In this document: in pieces, positions 33,840-64,000 of the stretch
Layout: every line of letters starts with the position of its first letter
Position numbering within the stretch: position 1 is the stretch's first letter
IMG/VR virus record: IMGVR_UViG_3300021431_000086
Location: 32,001 to 96,000 of that record
DNA: 64,000 nucleotides
Source of the DNA: a virus
Lineage: Duplodnaviria > Caudoviricetes
Reading direction: 5' to 3' (one strand)
Program-made: the position numbers and the translations under genes
Notes under the pieces: model-generated
What the model saw: the letters and a program-made list of their open reading frames with translations, nothing else
Told to the model about the DNA's origin: nothing
The model's database searches: none

Positions 33840-36800
33840 TCATGTAGTTATGTCGTCAAGCCCAAGAGTATATCTATCATAGTAGCCACGAGTAGTTGAA
33901 GAAATAGACCATGCAATAATTTTAGTGCCATTATCGTCAAACTCCTTACATTCAAGAGTTATATAATCCGTCGTCGGAATTGGGTCGCCGACAAAGTATG
34001 CTTCTTCTGGATTTACATTGTTTATGGTGTTCGCATTTTCAACTTCCTCATAAATTCCACGAATATATAATGCTGGGCCGCCCTTTACGGTTGAACTTCC
34101 TGTATATGCAGATGCACCATAAAAAGACAATGTTATTTTAGTTCCGAGCAATTCCCGTGCATCATTAGCCATTTCCCCAATAAATTTGTTTAGGTAATGA
34201 ATCCAATCGGGATTATTAAGTACATTCTCTCCATCGGCCGTATGATAAGTTTCGTCATATAACATTGTTCCTACATTAGATGACCCACCGTATGAAGCAG
34301 TTATGTCCGATTTGAAATTTCTATATAATCCAAGTCCATTGTAGGACACATTATTCTCTTTCGATGGAAACCAAGACATATATTGAGAACGCCCATAAAT
34401 ATCATTTGATAGGGGTATAAAGAATGGAAGGTTTATATAGAAGTCTCCTGAAACTTGACCATTAAAGTCTGCATAATCTTCTACTGGTAAACCATCGTCT
34501 AAATACCCGTACCCCGTTGGGAATACATATACATCGCCTTTATATAATGTTCCAGAACCGCTATAATAATATTGATTCCCATCTGGTGTCGCATAAAAGG
34601 CAAAACTTTGTCCAAGATTTTTATATTGTATAGTATTCTCATATTCCCCCGTCCATGCACTAACTTCCCTCTTCGTAAAGTCTTTTATATTAAACTCATG
34701 AAGAATAGTAGTCTTATGGGTAACAAAACCGCTAAAATTTCCTTTCATTGCATCCACCGTGCCATCGGCAAACACCTTGAAGGTGGCGCTGTCGGCATCC
34801 TGCCCACCGCTCCACAGATAATACTGTTTGCCATCGCCGTCCACACGGTTGCCCATTCCGGCGAGGACAGTTCCGAGGTTGTCCGTAATCACAAAGTTAG
34901 AGCCTGTGAGCATCCGTATGTAGGCATTCTGGGCAATGAGGTAGGTGAAGAATGCGCTGAGCGCATTGACAGAGATGGGCTGGAACGGAGCGCGTGTCAG
35001 ATTCAGGTCTCCGGCAAGCGTCCCACTGCCCGTTGTTGTGAGATATTGAGTCAATTCCCCAGGTGTCAGGAAAGTAGCCGCCAAGTCCAAGTCGCTGTCG
35101 CTCTGATAATGGAACCCGTAGATGCACTCATACGCCATGTAGCCGCTCTGTACCAAACTCTGCGGATAGCCAACAACGATGTAGTCTTTATATCTCACGG
35201 CGACGGCAGTCTCAGTCCCGTCAAAGAAGTTCATGCCATTAGGAATGACATTCTGATGCACGCGGACAACGGGGCCAGCAAGCCCCTTGTCTCCCTTGTC
35301 ACCCTTGTCTCCCTTTGCCGCCTTGATAAGTGGAATCTCCTTCTTGATGAGGTAGGTGTCCACCATCTCGTCAGGATTGGAGGCGTTGATACTTGATGCT
35401 GCGAACAGCTCCACTACATCAACCGAACTCTCAATCTCCCTGTAGGGCATGGAGAAGATAGCAAGGTTTGCACCGTTGAAGAGCAGTGTTCGCGTGTCAC
35501 CCGTCCGCTTATACACCCGGCAATAGCATGGGAAGGCAGCGCGGACACCGCCGTTGTCGGTATAGAATCTGATGGAGCCGCCAAACTCTCCCTTGTCAGT
35601 CGCCGTGTCTATGGCGATGTAGTCCTTCTCCGTCTGGCAGATGTAGTTCACGCCCGTCTCACCATACACACCGATGACGTGTGGAGCTTCTGTCTCTTTG
35701 ACTCCATCTGGCAAGATGGCATCCTCGTAATGATCCCCGATATCGTCTATCGTCCCGTCGATTAGAATGGGATATTGTAGCGTCTTGCGCCACATGTAAG
35801 GGCGGAACTCGTTAAAGAAGTATGCGCTTTCTTCGTTGGAAAAGAAAGACTGGTCCGGGTTCCAGTACACAAGCTCCGCGCCCATTCCAACACCGCCTTC
35901 ATTCAGATCCTTTGTTTCGCTTGTCGTATAATAATGTATGTCTCGTGTTGCCGGAATGAAATTGACGGTCACAATTGCAAGTTCCACATTTGTATTATTG
36001 ACAACCAGATGTACATTAAGACTCTTCCGAGATGCAAATGCGGTGATAGGAAGAACTGCTTTTCCGGTGGTTGCGCCGGAGAAAACAAGCGGAGTGTCAT
36101 CGCTACTATCCTCGCTGTCAACGGGATCATAGAAAAGTGCAAGGCCGGCCGTCCTGAACCATGCCTCATTAATATAGAATACACTTCCGTCCTGGGCAAT
36201 AGAGCGGATAAAGATGTTGATATTGTTTTCCGGGATATATCTTCCAGAGGTGTCGTCGTAGCTTACGGTCCCCGAGGATAGTTCAATCTCGAATTTTTCC
36301 TTTGTCTCGGCAATTATAGTAATGGTGCCTGTGGCAATTGTGGAAAAACCGGTAATCTCCGACTCGTCGGCAACGCATGCTGATATATAGAATGTTGCAG
36401 AAACAGAGGCCGAGAAGTCGTCGGTTCCGGAACTGCCAGCCTCATGCTTCAGCTCTATGCTATCTGTAAATCCATTAGCCTTACTTGCGTTCCACTGGTT
36501 GTCCGTGTTTGTATTGCCGGTATTCCTTGTAATCATCCAGCGGTCAACACTCGTAGTTGCTGCCTCGTCAAATCCTTTTATCAGAACCGGACTAAGAATG
36601 ATACTCCCCCCCCATCTCAGGTATGGAACGCCTGCATCCATGCCCTCACTTCGTATTTCCACGCGCAGCGGCAGAGAGTCGGGGTCAAGGCTCCATTCCT
36701 TGTTGTACTCGTCTGTGCCAAGTATTCCCGTGTCAAGGTTCACGGTACGCAGGTTGTTTTCTGGAAGACTGACCTCCCCCATGCGGACATACCAGTTGTC

Positions 36801-37169
36801 AGGGTCTATTGTGCCGTAATAATCCCTGCTCTCGCCGTCGGTGGTTACGCATGGGTATTTGTCCGTCCACTTCGACCCTCTCATCTCCATCGGCGCAAAT
36901 ACCAGGTAGGCATTGCTATTGTCGGACTTTGAGAGGCGGGCATAGATAGTGTAGGGCTTCCCACTTTCCGCCAATCTTCTGTTGCGTCCTTTCAGTGTCC
37001 ACTCCTGATATGTGCTATCCACCATACCAATACCCGCGCGTCCAGACCACACCTTGATTTTGGCGCCATTCGCTATGTACACAGACAAATCGTTGTAAGA
37101 GTTGTTGGAGTTGGGCGTGATACTGATTGCGGATGGGGCTATATAGTGAACTGGTGATGTGCGTGGCAT
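33840..37169 (-). CDS. large tail / baseplate-associated protein with short collagen-like repeat
   Basis: About 1109 aa from MPRTSP; KGDKGDKGDKG; 'WSGG...ATFKVFADG...KGNFSG' tail module; late motif upstream. Confidence 0.7.
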   Translation of the reverse strand: MPRTSPVHYIAPSAISITPNSNNSYNDLSVYIANGAKIKVWSGRAGIGMVDSTYQEWTLKGRNRRLAESGKPYTIYARLSKSDNSNAYLVFAPMEMRGSKWTDKYPCVTTDGESRDYYGTIDPDNWYVRMGEVSLPENNLRTVNLDTGILGTDEYNKEWSLDPDSLPLRVEIRSEGMDAGVPYLRWGGSIILSPVLIKGFDEAATTSVDRWMITRNTGNTNTDNQWNASKANGFTDSIELKHEAGSSGTDDFSASVSATFYISACVADESEITGFSTIATGTITIIAETKEKFEIELSSGTVSYDDTSGRYIPENNINIFIRSIAQDGSVFYINEAWFRTAGLALFYDPVDSEDSSDDTPLVFSGATTGKAVLPITAFASRKSLNVHLVVNNTNVELAIVTVNFIPATRDIHYYTTSETKDLNEGGVGMGAELVYWNPDQSFFSNEESAYFFNEFRPYMWRKTLQYPILIDGTIDDIGDHYEDAILPDGVKETEAPHVIGVYGETGVNYICQTEKDYIAIDTATDKGEFGGSIRFYTDNGGVRAAFPCYCRVYKRTGDTRTLLFNGANLAIFSMPYREIESSVDVVELFAASSINASNPDEMVDTYLIKKEIPLIKAAKGDKGDKGDKGLAGPVVRVHQNVIPNGMNFFDGTETAVAVRYKDYIVVGYPQSLVQSGYMAYECIYGFHYQSDSDLDLAATFLTPGELTQYLTTTGSGTLAGDLNLTRAPFQPISVNALSAFFTYLIAQNAYIRMLTGSNFVITDNLGTVLAGMGNRVDGDGKQYYLWSGGQDADSATFKVFADGTVDAMKGNFSGFVTHKTTILHEFNIKDFTKREVSAWTGEYENTIQYKNLGQSFAFYATPDGNQYYYSGSGTLYKGDVYVFPTGYGYLDDGLPVEDYADFNGQVSGDFYINLPFFIPLSNDIYGRSQYMSWFPSKENNVSYNGLGLYRNFKSDITASYGGSSNVGTMLYDETYHTADGENVLNNPDWIHYLNKFIGEMANDARELLGTKITLSFYGASAYTGSSTVKGGPALYIRGIYEEVENANTINNVNPEEAYFVGDPIPTTDYITLECKEFDDNGTKIIAWSISSTTRGYYDRYTLGLDDITT

Positions 37170-37181
37170 TCTTTTTTTAAA

Positions 37182-37220
37182 TGCAAAATAAGCGACGAAG
37201 TGGGTGCCGGTCAAGGGCAA
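37182..37220 (-). promoter_or_regulatory. late-promoter-like motif copy 6
   Basis: TTGCCCTTGA-N20-TATTTTGCA, ends 12 nt before ATG 37169. Confidence 0.75.
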
Positions 37221-44313: not shown

Positions 44314-46011
44314 TTATTTGTTTATATTCTTCAGTTTCTTGCTCAGTGCCTCGCAGAGCACACGGCTCATGTTCACTTCCACGGCATTGCCGATGTACTT
44401 CTTCTGCTCGGCCTGGGTGCCTACCAGCACATAGTCGGTGGGGAAGCCCATGATGCGTTTCAGTTCGCCGATGTTGAGCATACGCATACAGATGTCGATG
44501 ATGCCATAGGCGGCCATGAACTCCTTCACCTTTCGTGTCCAGGGACTGTCGCTCTCGTAGATGGCGATGCCCACCGCGCCTTCCTTGGTGGTAATGAGGT
44601 AGGGCGGCATCTTATCCATACGCGCAATGAGCGTAAAACAAGGTTTTTCGACAGAGCCGCCTGCTGATGCAAACTGAGGATTCATCAAGTAATGATACTT
44701 GTGACATGCTGTTATGACTGGTGCCGGCCCATCGATAGATCTTCCGACATTATTGAAGTCGGTGCTCATCACCCACGGCTTGCAGGTAACAATTTTCTGT
44801 TTTGGCGTAGTGAGCACGGCGGGGTTCGGCTGTTCAATGCTGGAGAGCTGACCGCCGCCGCTATATTCGTTGGCGATGAACTTCGTGCTCACCAGAGAAA
44901 TCCTGTCCTTCGTGGTCACGGTGGGTGCAGGTGCGTCAACCGATGAGTTGTAGCCGTTCCCGTAGTAAGCCGTCACGAAGGCGTGGTGGTCGATGGTGGT
45001 CACGGTGCCGGCCGGCTGCTCGATGTCGATGTTCTTGCTCTCCGGGTCGCCGCTGAACTGCTTCGAGAGGAACTGGCACTTCACCAGTCCGAGGCGGTTC
45101 TGGCAGGCCACCGTGGGACACGGCTCGTCAATAGAGGGTGCGTTGTGGTGGTTCTGCCGATTCATGGAGTTGTACTTCAATATCCATGCCTCGTGCTGCT
45201 TCTTGCCTCCGGCTACGAACTTCACCAGCCCTGCATAGATGCGCTCCAGCGTCTTCTCGCAGAGGGGCTTCTTGCGGGTGAAGATGCTCTCGCCGTCGTC
45301 GTCGAGGTCGAGCACGTCGCGCACAGCCTTCCACTTGTGGTACATGCGGAACATGCCGCCCTCGTCACCGTTCTTGGCGTAGGTCTGTTCGGGGAAGGCT
45401 ATCGGAAGTCCCTTCTTGGCGAACTGCCCGAAGAACCGCTTGCGCGAGGTGTAGGCCCCAAAGTCGGCGGCGTTCAGGATGCGCCAGTCGAAGTTGTAGC
45501 CGTATTCGCATACGTTCTTCACCCACCTCAGGTAGTCGCTGCCTTGGTCCTTGCTCACGGGCTTGCCGTTCTCGTCGAGTGCGCCCCAGCACATGAACTC
45601 CTCCACATTCTCAATCTGGATATAGTCTGTGTCAAGTACTTCAATGTAGCGAAACAGATGCTCGGCCAGCGTGCGGCTGTCGGCGTCGCGTGGCTGTCCG
45701 CCCTTGGCTTTTGAGAAATTGGTACATTCCAGTGATGCCCACAGCACCACCTTCGCTTCGGGGTATTTTTCTTTCATCTTCCGTAGGTGATTCAACATCG
45801 GGGTCAGCTCCAGCGTGCGGATGTCCTCAGTGAAGTGGAGCGTGTGCGGATGGTTGGCCTGGTGTGAGAGTATTGCGTTCTTGTCGTGGTTGACGCATGC
45901 TATCACCTCGGCGCACTTCCTGCCATCCACACGGGCATACTCCACGCCGCTTGACGTGCCGCCCGCCCCGCAGAAGAGGTCGATGTATAGTAGAGTTATA
46001 TTATTTTTCAT
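44314..46011 (-). CDS. dcm: C5-cytosine DNA methyltransferase
   Basis: Motif I IDLFCGAGG, motif IV ASLECTNFSKAKG, motif VI IENVEEF, motif VIII TSRKRFF, motifs IX-X RML...MGFP..Y...QKKYIGNAV. Confidence 0.9.
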   Translation of the reverse strand: MKNNITLLYIDLFCGAGGTSSGVEYARVDGRKCAEVIACVNHDKNAILSHQANHPHTLHFTEDIRTLELTPMLNHLRKMKEKYPEAKVVLWASLECTNFSKAKGGQPRDADSRTLAEHLFRYIEVLDTDYIQIENVEEFMCWGALDENGKPVSKDQGSDYLRWVKNVCEYGYNFDWRILNAADFGAYTSRKRFFGQFAKKGLPIAFPEQTYAKNGDEGGMFRMYHKWKAVRDVLDLDDDGESIFTRKKPLCEKTLERIYAGLVKFVAGGKKQHEAWILKYNSMNRQNHHNAPSIDEPCPTVACQNRLGLVKCQFLSKQFSGDPESKNIDIEQPAGTVTTIDHHAFVTAYYGNGYNSSVDAPAPTVTTKDRISLVSTKFIANEYSGGGQLSSIEQPNPAVLTTPKQKIVTCKPWVMSTDFNNVGRSIDGPAPVITACHKYHYLMNPQFASAGGSVEKPCFTLIARMDKMPPYLITTKEGAVGIAIYESDSPWTRKVKEFMAAYGIIDICMRMLNIGELKRIMGFPTDYVLVGTQAEQKKYIGNAVEVNMSRVLCEALSKKLKNINK

Positions 46012-58444: not shown

Positions 58445-58834
58445 TCATTTCTTCATCCTCTGTCGTATTTTTCTGTCCTCATCGCGACGGCGGTTCATCT
58501 CCATGATGTGGTCGTAAAACTCACGATCACACTCCGTCTGTTCTTGAGCCTGCCGTTGTAGCTCCTTGGCAGCCCCCTGTTGCTCGGGCGACAGCGTTGC
58601 ATCTATAGGCAACTCAGCCAACATGTCGGCCAGCAGCTTGGCATAGTGGGCCTGTCGGCGGCGAACCTCCTCTTCCCACTTCCGCACACGTTCCACTTCT
58701 TTCCGGCAGGCCCGCCAGTAGGCTTTGCGTGCTGCCTCATGCGACGTACCCTGGTACACCCATACCACACGCCCCGTGAGGCACGAACGGCGGATGACTA
58801 TGACCTTTCTCTTCTTCACCTTGCAATATTTCAT
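58445..58834 (-). CDS. hypothetical basic protein
   Basis: 129 aa, TAATG-coupled to the primase stop. Confidence 0.6.
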   Translation of the reverse strand: MKYCKVKKRKVIVIRRSCLTGRVVWVYQGTSHEAARKAYWRACRKEVERVRKWEEEVRRRQAHYAKLLADMLAELPIDATLSPEQQGAAKELQRQAQEQTECDREFYDHIMEMNRRRDEDRKIRQRMKK

Positions 58835-61800
58835 TATTCCAAGACCTCATTGGCCCTGGCCTCCGGGTCCTTCTCCGGAGCTGCCTGCACATATCCCTCT
58901 TCATATTCCTTTCCCTGCGTGTAAGGCTTTGTCGGCACTTCACCCGGCCTGTTGCGGTAGAAGTAATGCACAAAAACGTGGTTGCTCAGTTCCCTCGGCA
59001 GACGCTCGCCGGTGCTGACCTCGCGGCGATATTGGTTCTTCACCATCTTCTCCAGCGGGCGACCGAGGCCGTCGAGTTGGGTCATCCATGCCCGCATCTG
59101 TCGGCCACCATGACGGCGGTACGATGCCGTAGTCAGTACCACGTCGGGGTCCATGACGATGCCCATGCGGTTCAGGCAGGGCTTCAGGTACTTTGCGATG
59201 CGCTTCTTGGTCTTCTCGATTGTCTCGTAAGTGACCGCCTCTCCCTCGCTGTCCAAGAGGCTGATGGCCATCTCCTGCGGCGGGATGGGCTGACCAATAC
59301 GCGGATTGTCGGGCACATCCTCGAAGTATTGCAGCATCCAGTCGGTCAGGCCGCCGTCCTTGGTCATGGCGTAGAGTTCGCGGCGCAGGCTGCGCGCCTC
59401 GGTGGGCGGCAGGATGACCTCGTTGGGGTGCTGCAGATAGAACTGTGCAAAGGCCAGCAGCAGGTTCTGCACCTCGTTGAGCAACGCGGGTGGCAGGTTG
59501 CGGGCCACCTCGGCCACACCGTACTTCTCCTGGAAGTCGTCCTTCGGAGCGTGGTCGAGCCAACGTCCATCGTCTGTGGCGGCATGGTAGTAGTCAGAGG
59601 TGTAGCAGGGATAGATACGTCCCTTGGTAGAGCCTGACGAGCGGTCGAAAGGTTTGTTTGACGTGAGGAACACCTTCGGCACCTCGTCGCCCGTCAGTGT
59701 GATGGGCTGCTTGTAGAGTGTCTTGCAAACTATCTTCGTGCCGATGTTGTAGATGTCCTCCACGTTGAAGTTGTTGGGAAGTTCATCGACACAGACGAGG
59801 GTGTGCAGGCCGGCCACTACAGAGCCGAACAGAACCTCCATCGAGATATTCTTCATGCTCTTGCCGGCGACGTTGGCCGACGACGGGCGCACAAGTGCCA
59901 TCAGGTCAATGAAGGCAGTCTTGCCGTTGCGTCCACTGGCTTTGTTCTCGTCCGTCACGCTATAGTCGGTCATGTGAACAGTCTGTTGGCTGGCAAGGCT
60001 CCTGTGCCGCGTGATGGCATAGCCCACAGCGTGTGCCTTGTTAATGAAGTGCATGTCCTGCATCTGCCGCTCCACGGCTGTCAGCGTCTCGCCAAACGAT
60101 TCTTTCTCCCAGAAGATGCGACAGGTGTTATACACGAACTGGAAGTGCATCGGCATCTCATCAAAGGGTTTGTCCATGATGAGCCTGTACTTCCACAGGT
60201 TCTCGTAGTTTTTCCAGCGCAGGTTCTCGGCGGCTCGCATGGCGGGCGTGGTGCATTGCTTGCTTATCTCTTCGTGCCGCTTCCGCTCAGTTTCATATTT
60301 AGGATTGATGACGATACGCCACGATTGTTTCATTTCTTGGAACTCGCCCGGCATGATGGCTTCCTCGTTCGTCACCCACGCCAACTGTTCGTATGCCACA
60401 GCCTTGATGCCGTCCTTATCGACGCGCACCGCTGTGTTCTCGAAGAAGAAATGGTCGAACGTCTCGCCCCACGAATGTTCGTTGATGGATGTCGGGGGCA
60501 TCGTGCTCATCGTCCTTAGGTCGAGCCCCTTGCCCGTGAAGATGGTGTTGACGAGGTTGGCCTTGAAGGGCGCATCCTCCTCGCTGATGTGTGCATCTAT
60601 CCAGTCGAGCATCGCCGTGCGGCTCACGGCCTCCAGTTGGCTGCCCGTCCGCGAGGTGTCAAGGTAGCGGTATGTGTTGTGGAAAGAGAGTTGGTAGAAC
60701 GCACGTTGTCCGCGCTCGTCGCCGTGACAGCGTATGCCCTTCGCGTCGAGGAACTGCAGGAGGTTCGCCACGCTCAATACATAGCGCACGTTCTTTTCCT
60801 TCTCGTCGCCCTCGCGTGTCTTCTTCGTCGTCGCCTTGTCAATCCAAAACTGCATCGTCAACGCATTCTTCAGCAGTCGCATCAGTGCTTCCGATGGGTT
60901 TGCCTTGCGCAAGTCCGGCGCAAACCGCTTCTGTATCTGCGGGAAATGCGTCACGAAGTCCGTCACATCCTTCAGGGGTTTGCCACTGTGCCCGTCGGTT
61001 TTGCCGACAGGTTCTGCCATCTCCCTTGGCAACCTCACCCAATGCACGTTAGCGTTTTCAAGCGCAATGCTTCCGCTGCAAGCCACACCCGTCTGGTCCA
61101 GGTCATAGCACACATACACATCCACCGCCACCTGTGTCATTCTCACCAGCAACGCCCTAAGCCATTCGTCAAGCACGCCGTCGTGTATGCCGGCCAACTC
61201 ATTGTGTAGCCATAGGACGTGTGCGTCCGTCGCTGCCCACATCTGCATCGCATCCCTCGGCCCAGAGCACAGGCACAGACGCTTCATCTTATAATATGTG
61301 CGTGCATCGCCCTTCTCATCCTTCCCTATTATCTTCACCAGCGGATGCCGCAAGTCCTTCTGCACGTCAGCCCACCAAGGGCTTCCACCTTGCTCTCCCG
61401 TGTGCTCGGCGATTCTGCCGCCGAAGGCTTCCAGCGCAGCCATCGCCGTCCGGCTGCCATATACCTTCGTCCCCACATCTTCCTTGCTGTGCCAGTACCA
61501 TTTGTTGCCAGTCTTGCTCCTCGGCTCGTACTTCTTCACACCCCATTCGTATGGCATGACAAAGATGGGGTATGACGGACGGCTCTTGATGCAGAGGGAA
61601 ATCTTGCCACCCTGCTTCGGCTCCGTGGCTGCCGTGACGAACGTATCTACGGGATAGGTCCTGAACTCACGTTCCACCACCTCGCCCCACTCTGCAGCAG
61701 TGCGTGCCTCTCCCCTGCCCCGCCAGTATTCGCGATCCAGCGAGCAACGGTATAGCGGTTCGGGGTTGCCGTCGGGCGAGTGCCATAGGCCGTCGGCATC

Positions 61801-62316
61801 GGGCTGCGAGAAACGTGTCACCTGCTCGCCGTCCTCGCCCTGCACGGTAGCCAACTTCACCGTGAAGCCCAGCGCCCGCAGATGCTCCGCCGTCCACGGT
61901 GTCAGGTCATAGTCGCAGTCGGACTGTGCCTTCACCACCGTCGTGCGTTGTTCCGGTGTCGTCGGTGCCGTCCCCTCAATCTCTACATTGTGATCGTCCA
62001 CTAAGCGCTGGCATACCTTCTGCATCTGTTCGCCCGTCAGCGACGTGTGGTCCAGTCCCATCAGCGCCGCCTGCAGCGCAATGGCACCATATCCCGCCTT
62101 GTTGCAACCGCCACAAATCCAACCAGGCGCATCATGGCCGCCATCGGCCTGCTGCTCCACACTGAACGACGGATTTGTATCGGGATGATGGAACGGACAA
62201 TGGTACAGCACCCTCGCACCTGCCTTCTTAGGCATGTGGGCCGGTTCGTAACCGTTCATCCGCATCACATCCACCAGGGAGATATTCTTCGGTATATGTT
62301 TGTCTTGTTTGTTCAT
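58834..62316 (-). CDS. primase-helicase (CHC2 zinc finger + Toprim-like + P-loop NTPase)
   Basis: CPFH..D..PSF...CGGC; CSGPRDA...YDLDQTG...KDVTDF; Walker A SGRNGKT and Walker B VCVDE. Confidence 0.85.
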   Translation of the reverse strand: MNKQDKHIPKNISLVDVMRMNGYEPAHMPKKAGARVLYHCPFHHPDTNPSFSVEQQADGGHDAPGWICGGCNKAGYGAIALQAALMGLDHTSLTGEQMQKVCQRLVDDHNVEIEGTAPTTPEQRTTVVKAQSDCDYDLTPWTAEHLRALGFTVKLATVQGEDGEQVTRFSQPDADGLWHSPDGNPEPLYRCSLDREYWRGRGEARTAAEWGEVVEREFRTYPVDTFVTAATEPKQGGKISLCIKSRPSYPIFVMPYEWGVKKYEPRSKTGNKWYWHSKEDVGTKVYGSRTAMAALEAFGGRIAEHTGEQGGSPWWADVQKDLRHPLVKIIGKDEKGDARTYYKMKRLCLCSGPRDAMQMWAATDAHVLWLHNELAGIHDGVLDEWLRALLVRMTQVAVDVYVCYDLDQTGVACSGSIALENANVHWVRLPREMAEPVGKTDGHSGKPLKDVTDFVTHFPQIQKRFAPDLRKANPSEALMRLLKNALTMQFWIDKATTKKTREGDEKEKNVRYVLSVANLLQFLDAKGIRCHGDERGQRAFYQLSFHNTYRYLDTSRTGSQLEAVSRTAMLDWIDAHISEEDAPFKANLVNTIFTGKGLDLRTMSTMPPTSINEHSWGETFDHFFFENTAVRVDKDGIKAVAYEQLAWVTNEEAIMPGEFQEMKQSWRIVINPKYETERKRHEEISKQCTTPAMRAAENLRWKNYENLWKYRLIMDKPFDEMPMHFQFVYNTCRIFWEKESFGETLTAVERQMQDMHFINKAHAVGYAITRHRSLASQQTVHMTDYSVTDENKASGRNGKTAFIDLMALVRPSSANVAGKSMKNISMEVLFGSVVAGLHTLVCVDELPNNFNVEDIYNIGTKIVCKTLYKQPITLTGDEVPKVFLTSNKPFDRSSGSTKGRIYPCYTSDYYHAATDDGRWLDHAPKDDFQEKYGVAEVARNLPPALLNEVQNLLLAFAQFYLQHPNEVILPPTEARSLRRELYAMTKDGGLTDWMLQYFEDVPDNPRIGQPIPPQEMAISLLDSEGEAVTYETIEKTKKRIAKYLKPCLNRMGIVMDPDVVLTTASYRRHGGRQMRAWMTQLDGLGRPLEKMVKNQYRREVSTGERLPRELSNHVFVHYFYRNRPGEVPTKPYTQGKEYEEGYVQAAPEKDPEARANEVLE

Positions 62317-62320
62317 CGTC

Positions 62321-63099
62321 CTAAAACAGCGTCAACTGTTGTCGTTCCCGTTCTATGCGCTCCTGCGCCTTGTCGTAATATTCCTTGTTCAGCTCGAAGC
62401 CGACGTAGTGCCTCTTTTCCTTCAGACAGGCGATGGCAGTCGTGCCACTGCCCATGCAGTTGTCCAATACTACCCCCCCCCCGAATTGGTATAGGTGCGA
62501 ATGAGATAGCGGAGCAGGTCAACGGGCTTCTGGGTGGGGTGAAACTGCTCCTCGTTACAATGCACAGCCTTCACAGTGATAATGGAGCGCGGATGTTTCT
62601 TGTCTTCGTATGTCGGATTGATGCGTCCCACCTTCCCATAGCATGAGTTCTTTTCCACATGGTCGCCGTGACCTTGCGGATGATTAGGCTCACGTCCGTT
62701 CAAATCTTCCATCTGAGGATTGTAGGTTGGTAACTTCTGATAGAACACACAGATGTCTTCGTGATAACGCAGCGGCATTCGGTTGGCATTGAGAAAACCC
62801 GTAGCACGCCCTTTGTCCCACACCAGATTATACCTCCACATCTTCGGATTGCTCATCATCAGCTGTGCCGTGAACATCCCTTGGGCGAAGAGCACGATGG
62901 CAGCATTGGGCTTCGTAATCCGCTTGTACTGCTCCCACAGCGGCTCCATCGGAATCATCCTGTCCCATTGCGCATTCGGGTTGTTCCGATGCAACACCCC
63001 GTATGGCAGATCGCAGATTACCGCGTCCGCCATCCCGTCAGGAATCATCTTCATCCCCTCCAAGCAATCCATATTATATATAGTATCAAGTTCTATCAT
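62321..63099 (-). pseudogene. beta-class N6A/N4C DNA methyltransferase, frameshifted at a G10 tract (possible phase-OFF state)
   Basis: N-terminal part IYNMDCLEGM..DLPYG...HPTQKPV.L..YLI.TYTN stops right after G10; the shifted frame continues VVLDNCMGSGTTAIAC...YVGFELNKEYY to TAG at 62321. Confidence 0.88.
62473..62482 (-). repeat. G10 homopolymer inside the MTase gene
   Basis: C10 on the + strand at the frameshift point. Confidence 0.9.
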
Positions 63100-63116
63100 A
63101 TCCTTTCTTTCTTTTG

Positions 63117-63193
63117 TGGGAGTGTGTGGAATCGAACCACCGCTCAGCGCCAATCTTACTTGCCCGTTGCCCATTTACGGGTCTTTCACTCCC
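63117..63193 (-). ncRNA. tRNA-like element (acceptor stem and T arm, non-canonical middle)
   Basis: GGGAGTG...GTGGTTCGATTCCAC-A-CACTCCC-A, 77 nt; no canonical D or anticodon arm. Confidence 0.55.
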
Positions 63194-63290
63194 ATGTGGC
63201 TGCGCGTCCGGCGCTTTTACTCCTTTCCGCACAGCCTGCCGTCTTTCCGGCTGTCATCCGAGAACCTCCACACGGATAAGCGCGTGGACA

Positions 63291-64000
63291 CTATTTCTTA
63301 TTCATCCGCTCCACCACCTGCAGCATCATGTTCAGGCCGACGGCATCCATCGCGCTGCCACTGCCAGCACCGTTGCCCATGATTATTTCAGGCACCCAGC
63401 GAACTTGGCTCTGCGCCAGTTCGTGTGCGATGCCGATGGCTGTCTCCTTCTCGATGGTGGCGCGTTCCAGTGGCGTGAGTCCGGCACTGACGAGGGCGCG
63501 GTTGGCAGCGGCCTTGGCTTCGCCCTCTGCCTTGACACGCTTGGCTACTTCCTCGGCACGGGCGGCTTCCAGCCGGGCCACCTCAAACTCCTGTTCTGCC
63601 TTGGTCACGGCCTTGGCCTTCTCCTTCTCCTGCTCCCACTTGGCAGTCTCGGCGGCCTGCTTGCCCTGTTCCGTCACGAGGATGGTCTTCTGGATGGCTT
63701 CAAGACTCTTGGTCTTCGATGTCACCTGTGCCAGGTTAGCGGCTTTCTGTGCGTCAATCTGGTCCTGCGTCATCTTGTCGTACTTGATGTCGGTGATGCT
63801 GACGAGGTTGCAGACAATGCCGTACTGTGAGAAGGGACTGACCTCCTGCCGCTTGTAGCCGCCGGGGGCGTTGCTGTCCATAATCAGTTCGGCCTTTGCC
63901 ACGATGTCGCTGTCGCCCGTCAGTTCGTTGATGACCGTCATCTTGTGCATCTTGGTTTTATACACGCCGTCGTTGAGCTGGTCGGTGATGTACTGGATAA
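63291..64000 (-). CDS. SPFH/band-7 (flotillin-like) protein, 5' end outside the window
   Basis: Frame is open to the window edge; DQL..GVY...YGI....SITDIKYD, AE/KA-rich coiled coil, VPEIIMG tail. Confidence 0.75.
   Translation of the reverse strand, partial: IQYITDQLNDGVYKTKMHKMTVINELTGDSDIVAKAELIMDSNAPGGYKRQEVSPFSQYGIVCNLVSITDIKYDKMTQDQIDAQKAANLAQVTSKTKSLEAIQKTILVTEQGKQAAETAKWEQEKEKAKAVTKAEQEFEVARLEAARAEEVAKRVKAEGEAKAAANRALVSAGLTPLERATIEKETAIGIAHELAQSQVRWVPEIIMGNGAGSGSAMDAVGLNMMLQVVERMNKK

Follow-up and report, generated by a model that had tools for sequence, protein, structure and literature searches.

Phase-variable DNA methyltransferases are known from bacterial pathogens. In bacterial phasevarions, Type III mod or Type I hsd genes carry simple-sequence repeats, and poly-G-containing Type II and IIG enzymes occur in Helicobacter, Campylobacter and Neisseria. 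Hypermutable poly-G is also known from Campylobacter phages of the Fletchervirus group (Sorensen et al. 2021, Cell Rep 35:109214, cited in PMC12823448, bioRxiv 10.1101/2025.10.21.683753); as described there, runs of ~7-11 G inside phage ORFs vary between genomes, generate frameshift diversity among progeny, and lie in receptor-binding genes, where they alter host recognition. In addition, homopolymer repeats in the coliphages T2 and T4 have been proposed as contingency loci that act as reversible frameshift switches for bet-hedging (bioRxiv 10.1101/2025.10.21.683753), and a poly-G run was noted in the methylase gene of Bordetella phage BPP-1 (Liu et al. 2004, J Bacteriol 186:1503, per bioRxiv 10.1101/2025.10.21.683753), which according to that preprint has been unstudied since. 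Our search of the literature for a poly-G switch in a phage methyltransferase returned no dedicated study and no conserved, family-wide case in orphan phage enzymes.

The window analysed here (the whole stretch of DNA, 64,000 nucleotides) belongs to a 125.8-kb contig of a metagenome-assembled genome; this contig also carries a gene for a 2575-aa tape-measure protein. The window contains a methyltransferase gene that is like those of phasevarions in having a simple repeat within the ORF, where slippage would shift the frame, and in differing in run length between close relatives; phasevarions give ON and OFF subpopulations, and the same is proposed for this phage gene. Unlike them, it is phage-borne and encodes an orphan beta-class enzyme, a stand-alone PF01555 protein and not the mod or hsd gene of a Type III or Type I system. 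Searches of Pfam and PHROGs with the two flanking genes, one belonging to phrog_11908 (function unassigned) and the other primase-like, found no restriction or Res family match. Moreover, the run lies ~80% of the way along the gene, within the loop that precedes motif I, and not near the 5' end. The likeness to Fletchervirus, as far as the cited accounts describe that group, extends to the length of the runs, their position inside phage ORFs and their variation between genomes; the genes affected differ, being in this phage and its relatives methyltransferase, PAPS-reductase-like and radical-SAM genes, the hosts are Bacteroidales, and the switch is here predicted from sequence comparison. In T2 and T4 the repeats are shorter (6 or more) and their rates have been measured, but they form no conserved site in a methyltransferase family, unlike the run described here. 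BPP-1 shares with our phage a poly-G run in a phage methylase gene.

The features of the locus are listed in the table below. The minus strand reads ACC AAT TC-G10-TA GTA TTG GAC, and the frame that a G8 or G11 run restores reads VVLDNCMGSGTT...QLTLF, with its stop at 62321-62323 and 4 nt between that stop and the downstream ATG (ORF start 62316). All of this, including the premature TNSGGG-stop at G10, agrees with the original prediction. The N-terminal half of the product matches positions 2-182 of the PF01555 profile (46 bits) and the C-terminal half positions 184-221 (43 bits), against a cut-off of 26.7; on phrog_67 the two halves match 121-303 (E 2e-49) and 304-352 (E 2e-21). Because the halves are contiguous on both profiles, they represent one gene that is cut exactly at the run, and the earlier remark that both halves look intact holds. 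Apart from this break, the methyltransferase gene is undamaged.

Table. Features of the methyltransferase locus and the gene downstream (window coordinates)
Feature	Position	Strand	Basis
Entire gene for the beta-class DNA methyltransferase (N6_N4_Mtase), frame lost at G10	62321..63099	-	PF01555 and phrog_67 contiguous across halves
Frame-0 ORF, 209 aa, ending TNSGGG + TAG; motifs IV-VIII, TRD, motif X helix	62470..63099	-	
Motif IV, DLPY (DPPY-like catalytic motif), residues 30-33	63001..63012	-	read from sequence
G10 homopolymer; encodes Gly-Gly loop between motif X helix and motif I strand	62473..62482	-	
TAG stop immediately 3' of run in the G10 frame	62470..62472	-	
C-terminal 50 codons, ON frame, intact (motif I and remaining AdoMet-binding part)	62321..62473	-	PF01555 184-221, E 7e-11
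Motif I, MGSGTT (FxGxG-type AdoMet loop)	62438..62455	-	read from ON frame
C-terminal QLTLF, resembling a beta-clamp-binding pentapeptide	62324..62338	-	sequence pattern
Third frame (read at G9), open for 52 codons, TGA overlapping downstream ATG (ATGA)	62313..62471	-	
Downstream gene, 1160 aa, putative primase-helicase, N-terminal CHC2 zinc ribbon	58834..62316	-	weak PF01807

The permuted motif order that had been predicted, with motif IV first and motif I last, was borne out: DLPY lies N-terminal to the run and MGSGTT after it, and both are conserved in an alignment of 44 homologues, in which D30 and P32 are invariant, L31 and Y33 are nearly so, and G216, S217, G218 and T220 are invariant. 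The closest solved structure is M.RsrI (E 7e-8), and this relationship, together with the motif order, identifies the product as a beta-class amino-methyltransferase. M.RsrI and other PF01555 enzymes share with it the domain, the motif order (DPPY-like first, FxGxG last) and the elements of the fold; M.RsrI, however, is part of a restriction-modification pair and has no repeat, whereas the phage enzyme is an orphan with a run. An AlphaFold model of the in-frame homologue P0009, built on the 44-sequence alignment (pTM 0.78), places the motif X helix at 193-203, a loop at 204-208 and strand beta1, which leads into motif I, at 209-212. The two glycines of the run are residues 207-208, the last of the five-residue loop, with local pLDDT of ~95; in this model, the run thus maps to a confidently predicted surface loop between the helix and strand beta1. 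A product truncated at the run lacks both the AdoMet loop and the QLTLF tail. QLTLF fits the pattern of the bacterial beta-clamp-binding pentapeptide; of 100 full-length homologues, 34 have a C-terminus of the form Q-h-x-h-F (h = hydrophobic), and among the rest close variants such as QPTLF or QLKLF are common.

In the intergenic stretch upstream of the methyltransferase (63112-63290, minus strand), we observed a tRNA-like T-arm and acceptor end (GGTTCGATTCC...). ARAGORN reported no tRNA or tmRNA over the window, and Rfam gave sub-threshold matches only over 61500-64000 (Zeta-pan E 0.61, beta_tmRNA E 0.71).

A lone G10 in one window is only mildly surprising: the chance expectation is 0.08 per window, 6 of 100 shuffles had at least one such run, and chance alone is not negligible. 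Nevertheless, many diverged homologues have a run at these very codons, and chance is therefore no explanation for it. To read the codons at the site, we fetched loci encoding relatives (18 viral, 61 metagenomic and 3 genomic). Three of these relatives were located in metagenome-assembled genomes labelled Bacteroidia, Bacteroidales and Prevotella, the others being metagenome or viral contigs, and several of the contigs come from records that we take to be rumen surveys. Most homologues have N-E-G-D/E-T-V/I-L-D at the site, with glycine encoded by GGC, GGT or GGA. Scattered among the homologues from rumen phage contigs are some that have x-G-G-V/L encoded with GGG GGG, which gives a run of G7-G10 on the same codons. 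The conserved and length-variable run that the original prediction had proposed to look for in homologues was thus found, with ~40% of the copies out of frame.

There are 23 distinct tract-bearing loci, 13 in frame and 10 out. The gene is in frame with G8 at L004, L008, L012, L023, L032, L034, L049 and L054 and with G7 at L011, L046, L055, L056 and L058; it is out of frame with G7 at L030 and L053, with G8 at L010 and L047, with G9 at L025, L037, L038 and L087, and with G10 at L036 and in the window. The loci were broken at the site in 10 of 23 cases with a run and in 0 of ~45 without one (Fisher p 4e-6), and among the best 120 protein clusters of a collection of 5.8 billion proteins, 12 of the 30 with a run were truncated or read through after GG(G), against 1 frameshifted cluster of the 88 without (p 1e-7); metagenome contigs are kin by descent, and both counts overstate the independence of the cases. 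The share of tract-bearing copies in frame is 57-60%, where one third would be expected under free drift in length, and this excess argues for selection keeping the gene functional. Every in-frame tract homologue has exactly two glycines, encoded by G8 or, where the codon before ends in A or a Leu codon starting with C follows, by G7. Of the two ON lengths proposed earlier, G8 was accordingly seen, but the three glycines of a G11-type ON form were never found at the site among the in-frame homologues. In all of the out-of-frame DNA loci, the C-terminal part is still open for 49-53 codons and matches the C-half probe, and the OFF states therefore look young. When an in-frame homologue was used to search 400 genomes belonging to the same order, it matched distant copies only (<=52% identity), all of them intact and none adding tract data.

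Run length also differs between close relatives. L010 has G8 and is OFF, while L011, L055 and L058, ~98% identical to it over kilobases, have G7 and are ON; L030 and L032 (93% identity) have G7 and G8; L037 has G9 against G8 in L008 and L034 (~93%); and L053 and L054 (90.5%) have G7 and G8. In the lineage of the window itself, Logan assemblies of SRR5322709, SRR873597 and SRR873600 contain G10 within 3 kb that is 100% identical to the window, a contig of ERZ27274622 that is 98.8% identical has G9 and is OFF, and a sister strain (JGI 3300011005 and its cluster-mates, ~96% protein identity) has GGGGGCGG, a G8-length run with a G-to-C change that is in frame. An exact-pattern search of IMG/VR with the flank and run of this strain gave no match. 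These sequences show a series from G8-length through G9 to G10 within one lineage. The uninterrupted run of this lineage is OFF wherever it has been seen; G10 is two steps away from G8 (two Gly), the sole ON form observed, and gene loss may be ongoing there.

The poly-G run is real, conserved and length-unstable, and we consider it likely that it is a contingency switch, OFF in the window, that turns the gene ON and OFF by mutation. As in contingency loci, a repeat within the ORF moves the frame (full enzyme at G8-length, third frame at G9, stop at G10), the site is conserved in 23 loci, and its length differs between relatives that are 90-98.8% identical. The anatomy of the locus, the conservation of the run, its variation in length with changes of frame across relatives and the reproducibility of G10 are direct observations. 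From these we infer a mechanism. The enzyme is an orphan beta-class DNA amino-methyltransferase, probably N6-adenine specific, of a ~125-kb tailed phage of rumen Bacteroidales, and the two loop glycine codons before motif I form the poly-G run together with the neighbouring bases. Slipped-strand mispairing during replication of the phage DNA would alter the length of the run, presumably at an appreciable rate and reversibly within a population. A G8-length run would then yield the full, active enzyme (ON); at G9 the enzyme would be cut short and followed by 52 out-of-frame residues, a tail ending on the start codon of the primase; and G10, the state in the window, would bring an immediate TAG, with loss of motif I and the C-terminal tail (OFF). 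The phage population would thereby be a mix of genomes with and without the methylation mark. The most likely selective benefit would be a hedge between two kinds of host, those with restriction enzymes that the mark blocks and those with defences directed at marked DNA. The switch may serve bet-hedging against host restriction or, as also suggested originally, epigenetic regulation.

The explanation that competes best with such a switch is that the run is a mutational hot spot without adaptive value and that an accessory methyltransferase is being lost as a young pseudogene, its run drifting from G8 through G9 to G10. We regard this as unlikely, though it would fit the lineage of the window well: every assembly of the strain carries G10 and the 98.8% relative carries G9, both of them OFF, the sister strain is fixed for an interrupted, stable ON run, the protein collection contains no ON allele of the exact strain, and the phage has other intact methyltransferases, for example that at 44314-46011 (phrog_116). 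What it leaves unexplained is the signature of the run across the family. Both glycine codons are GGG in all tract-type loci, although GGG makes up 13% of the glycine codons in the long ORFs of this phage, and the codon before the run ends in G whatever the residue (Ser TCG, Thr ACG, Val GTG, Met ATG, Gln CAG, Arg CGG), the sole exception being L046 (Glu GAA, G7). GGG GGG and the G-ending codon are thus kept against codon usage across homologues that are 58-83% identical. In a tree of the N-terminal 200 residues, the tract-bearers occupy at least 5 separate places, which requires at least 9 gains or losses, and constraining them to one clade costs 393 log-likelihood units and is rejected (p-AU 0.0005). 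This scatter could come from repeated origin or from recombination of segments; under either cause, the run is gained, kept and lost dynamically. Loss of the gene by drift also fits poorly with the intact C-terminal part that OFF copies always keep, with the run at the same position in a paralogous methyltransferase, and with the clustering of runs in DNA-modification genes, both of which are described below. Interrupted runs occur at L007 (GGGTGGGG), L009 (GGGGATGG) and L089 (GGGGGCGG); they look like switches locked ON, and such locked-ON runs show that some lineages were selected to stop switching.

The sequence behind the run bears on another possibility, namely that the full enzyme is made from the G10 gene by ribosomal -1 slippage, with a tRNA-Gly and a slow TAG, or by slippage of RNA polymerase, in which case the OFF state would leak or would be no OFF state. 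Next to the run, most tract-type loci have GTA and A or G, CTA A, or GTG A, which puts a stop directly behind it in one frame; GTA follows the run in most tract loci, though it accounts for only 17% of Val codons. This stop-giving flank may have been selected for clean truncation or for slippage at the stop. A -1 shift on G GGG GGG TAG would re-pair perfectly, with GTA as the next codon, and a stop or TA flank right behind the run is common in homologues. Recoding nevertheless seems improbable to us, since most tract-bearing homologues are in frame, the shifts needed by the others differ in sign (+1 in L010, L025 and L036-L038, -1 in L030, L047 and L053), and the predicted downstream fold is unremarkable (z -0.68); furthermore, general decoding by slippage would permit runs in essential genes, whereas the runs are confined to accessory modification genes. 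For the same reasons, namely the mixed signs, the mostly in-frame homologues and the lack of a stimulatory structure, a programmed -1 ribosomal frameshift site was set aside as a candidate. Across different genes, TA usually stands 3' of the runs (GnTAATT, GnTAGTA and GnTATTT at many loci; 62468-62472 in the window), and outside this methyltransferase gene it is often part of TATTT, where no stop arises.

That the run is a sequencing or assembly artefact, with a true length of G8 or G11 and an intact gene, is very hard to believe: although indel errors classically arise at homopolymers and the window is part of a metagenome-assembled genome, the same G10 in three independently assembled sequencing runs contradicts the assembly error considered in the original prediction. 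In relatives, even runs as short as G7 can be out of frame; in the window, long ORFs totalling 37 kb stay intact through the homopolymers they contain; and G/C runs of at least 8 are rare (16 in a 3.1 Mb genome), with no general breakage of frame around them and a few ambiguous cases (e.g. C19:2867).

Length-variable poly-G is not restricted to this methyltransferase among the relatives. Around the related loci, sense-strand poly-G runs abound, and phages that are nearly identical differ in the lengths of these runs. A paralogous second phrog_67 methyltransferase (L025:55-735 and L049:877-1743) has G9 just before motif I, at the same position as the run in the window, and both copies are truncated at profile position 302-303. 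At L010:3600-6618, comparison with L011, L055, L056 and L058 (~98% identical) revealed four further length-variable sites: two in a PAPS-reductase-like gene (G9/G8/G7, and G8 plus T/G8/G10), one in a phrog_799 methyltransferase (G8/G7/G8/G10) and one before a small ORF (G9/G9/G7/G7). A radical-SAM gene (phrog_9298; L049:3894-4804 and L023:1206) is split at G7, the part ahead of the run matching profile positions 2-71 and the part behind it 100-304. The relative G401, complete at 106.6 kb, has 15 runs of at least G7, of which 12 fall in two DNA-modification modules that together span <7 kb, one being the module of this methyltransferase and the other centred on a phrog_116 methyltransferase. 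At the latter (L103; G401:C1:39300-43600), six runs of G7-G10 surround the phrog_116 (C5-type) methyltransferase, which lies next to an HNH endonuclease, and three of the runs are in a 600-nt stretch without a long ORF. We also observed five runs of G7-G9 within 1.1 kb at L032:5400-6594, where there are only short ORFs and which is possibly a heavily frameshifted gene.

The phage of the window is itself poor in poly-G, with 4 runs of G or C of at least 7 in 125.8 kb, so the methyltransferase run stands nearly alone there; a 129.7-kb relative, G402, is likewise poor in such runs. The only other run of at least G8 in the window (36606-36613, minus strand) is in frame within a 1126-aa ORF at 33840-37220, and the other long run of the phage contig, a C8 at C50:10764, lies inside an intact ORF. 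The second DNA methyltransferase of the phage, at 44314-46011 on the minus strand, is a 565-aa protein without a long G run.

The three frames behind the run end at different distances from the next gene. In the G10 frame the stop lies 150 nt upstream of the downstream gene, and at L087, a G9 relative, the called product of 244 aa ends inside the start of the next gene. As sequenced, the coupling between run length and the primase would be one of geometry only. The earlier naming of the downstream gene as a primase held in part: its CHC2 zinc-ribbon match is weak (E 0.0044, below the cut-off) and its neighbours in a protein language model (Atlas) are named primase-helicase or CHC2 proteins, but searches of PDB and PHROGs with the 1160-aa protein gave no match.

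Beyond the switch in this one gene, we tentatively put forward a broader scheme, which we hold to be possible but would not presume: that rumen and gut Bacteroidota phages have a dedicated system that keeps poly-G, typically as GnTA, specifically in DNA-modification genes, and that the run described here is a three-state switch. Within that scheme, the genes may comprise several methyltransferases together with PAPS-reductase-like and radical-SAM enzymes, and each burst would yield combinatorially different DNA marks that are heritable yet reversible; the ON form would make the full enzyme, and at both G9 and G10 the enzyme would be dead, but G9 would keep translation going to the ATGA at the primase start, with G10 terminating it 150 nt earlier, so that run length could also tune the translation of the replication gene.

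If the run is indeed a switch, uncultured rumen and gut phages would stochastically diversify their own epigenome, which would bear on how restriction-modification and methyl-dependent defences shape the host range of phages. Phage genes broken at homopolymers would then have to be annotated as switches and not as pseudogenes or errors, and the reading of phage methylomes from metagenomes would change.
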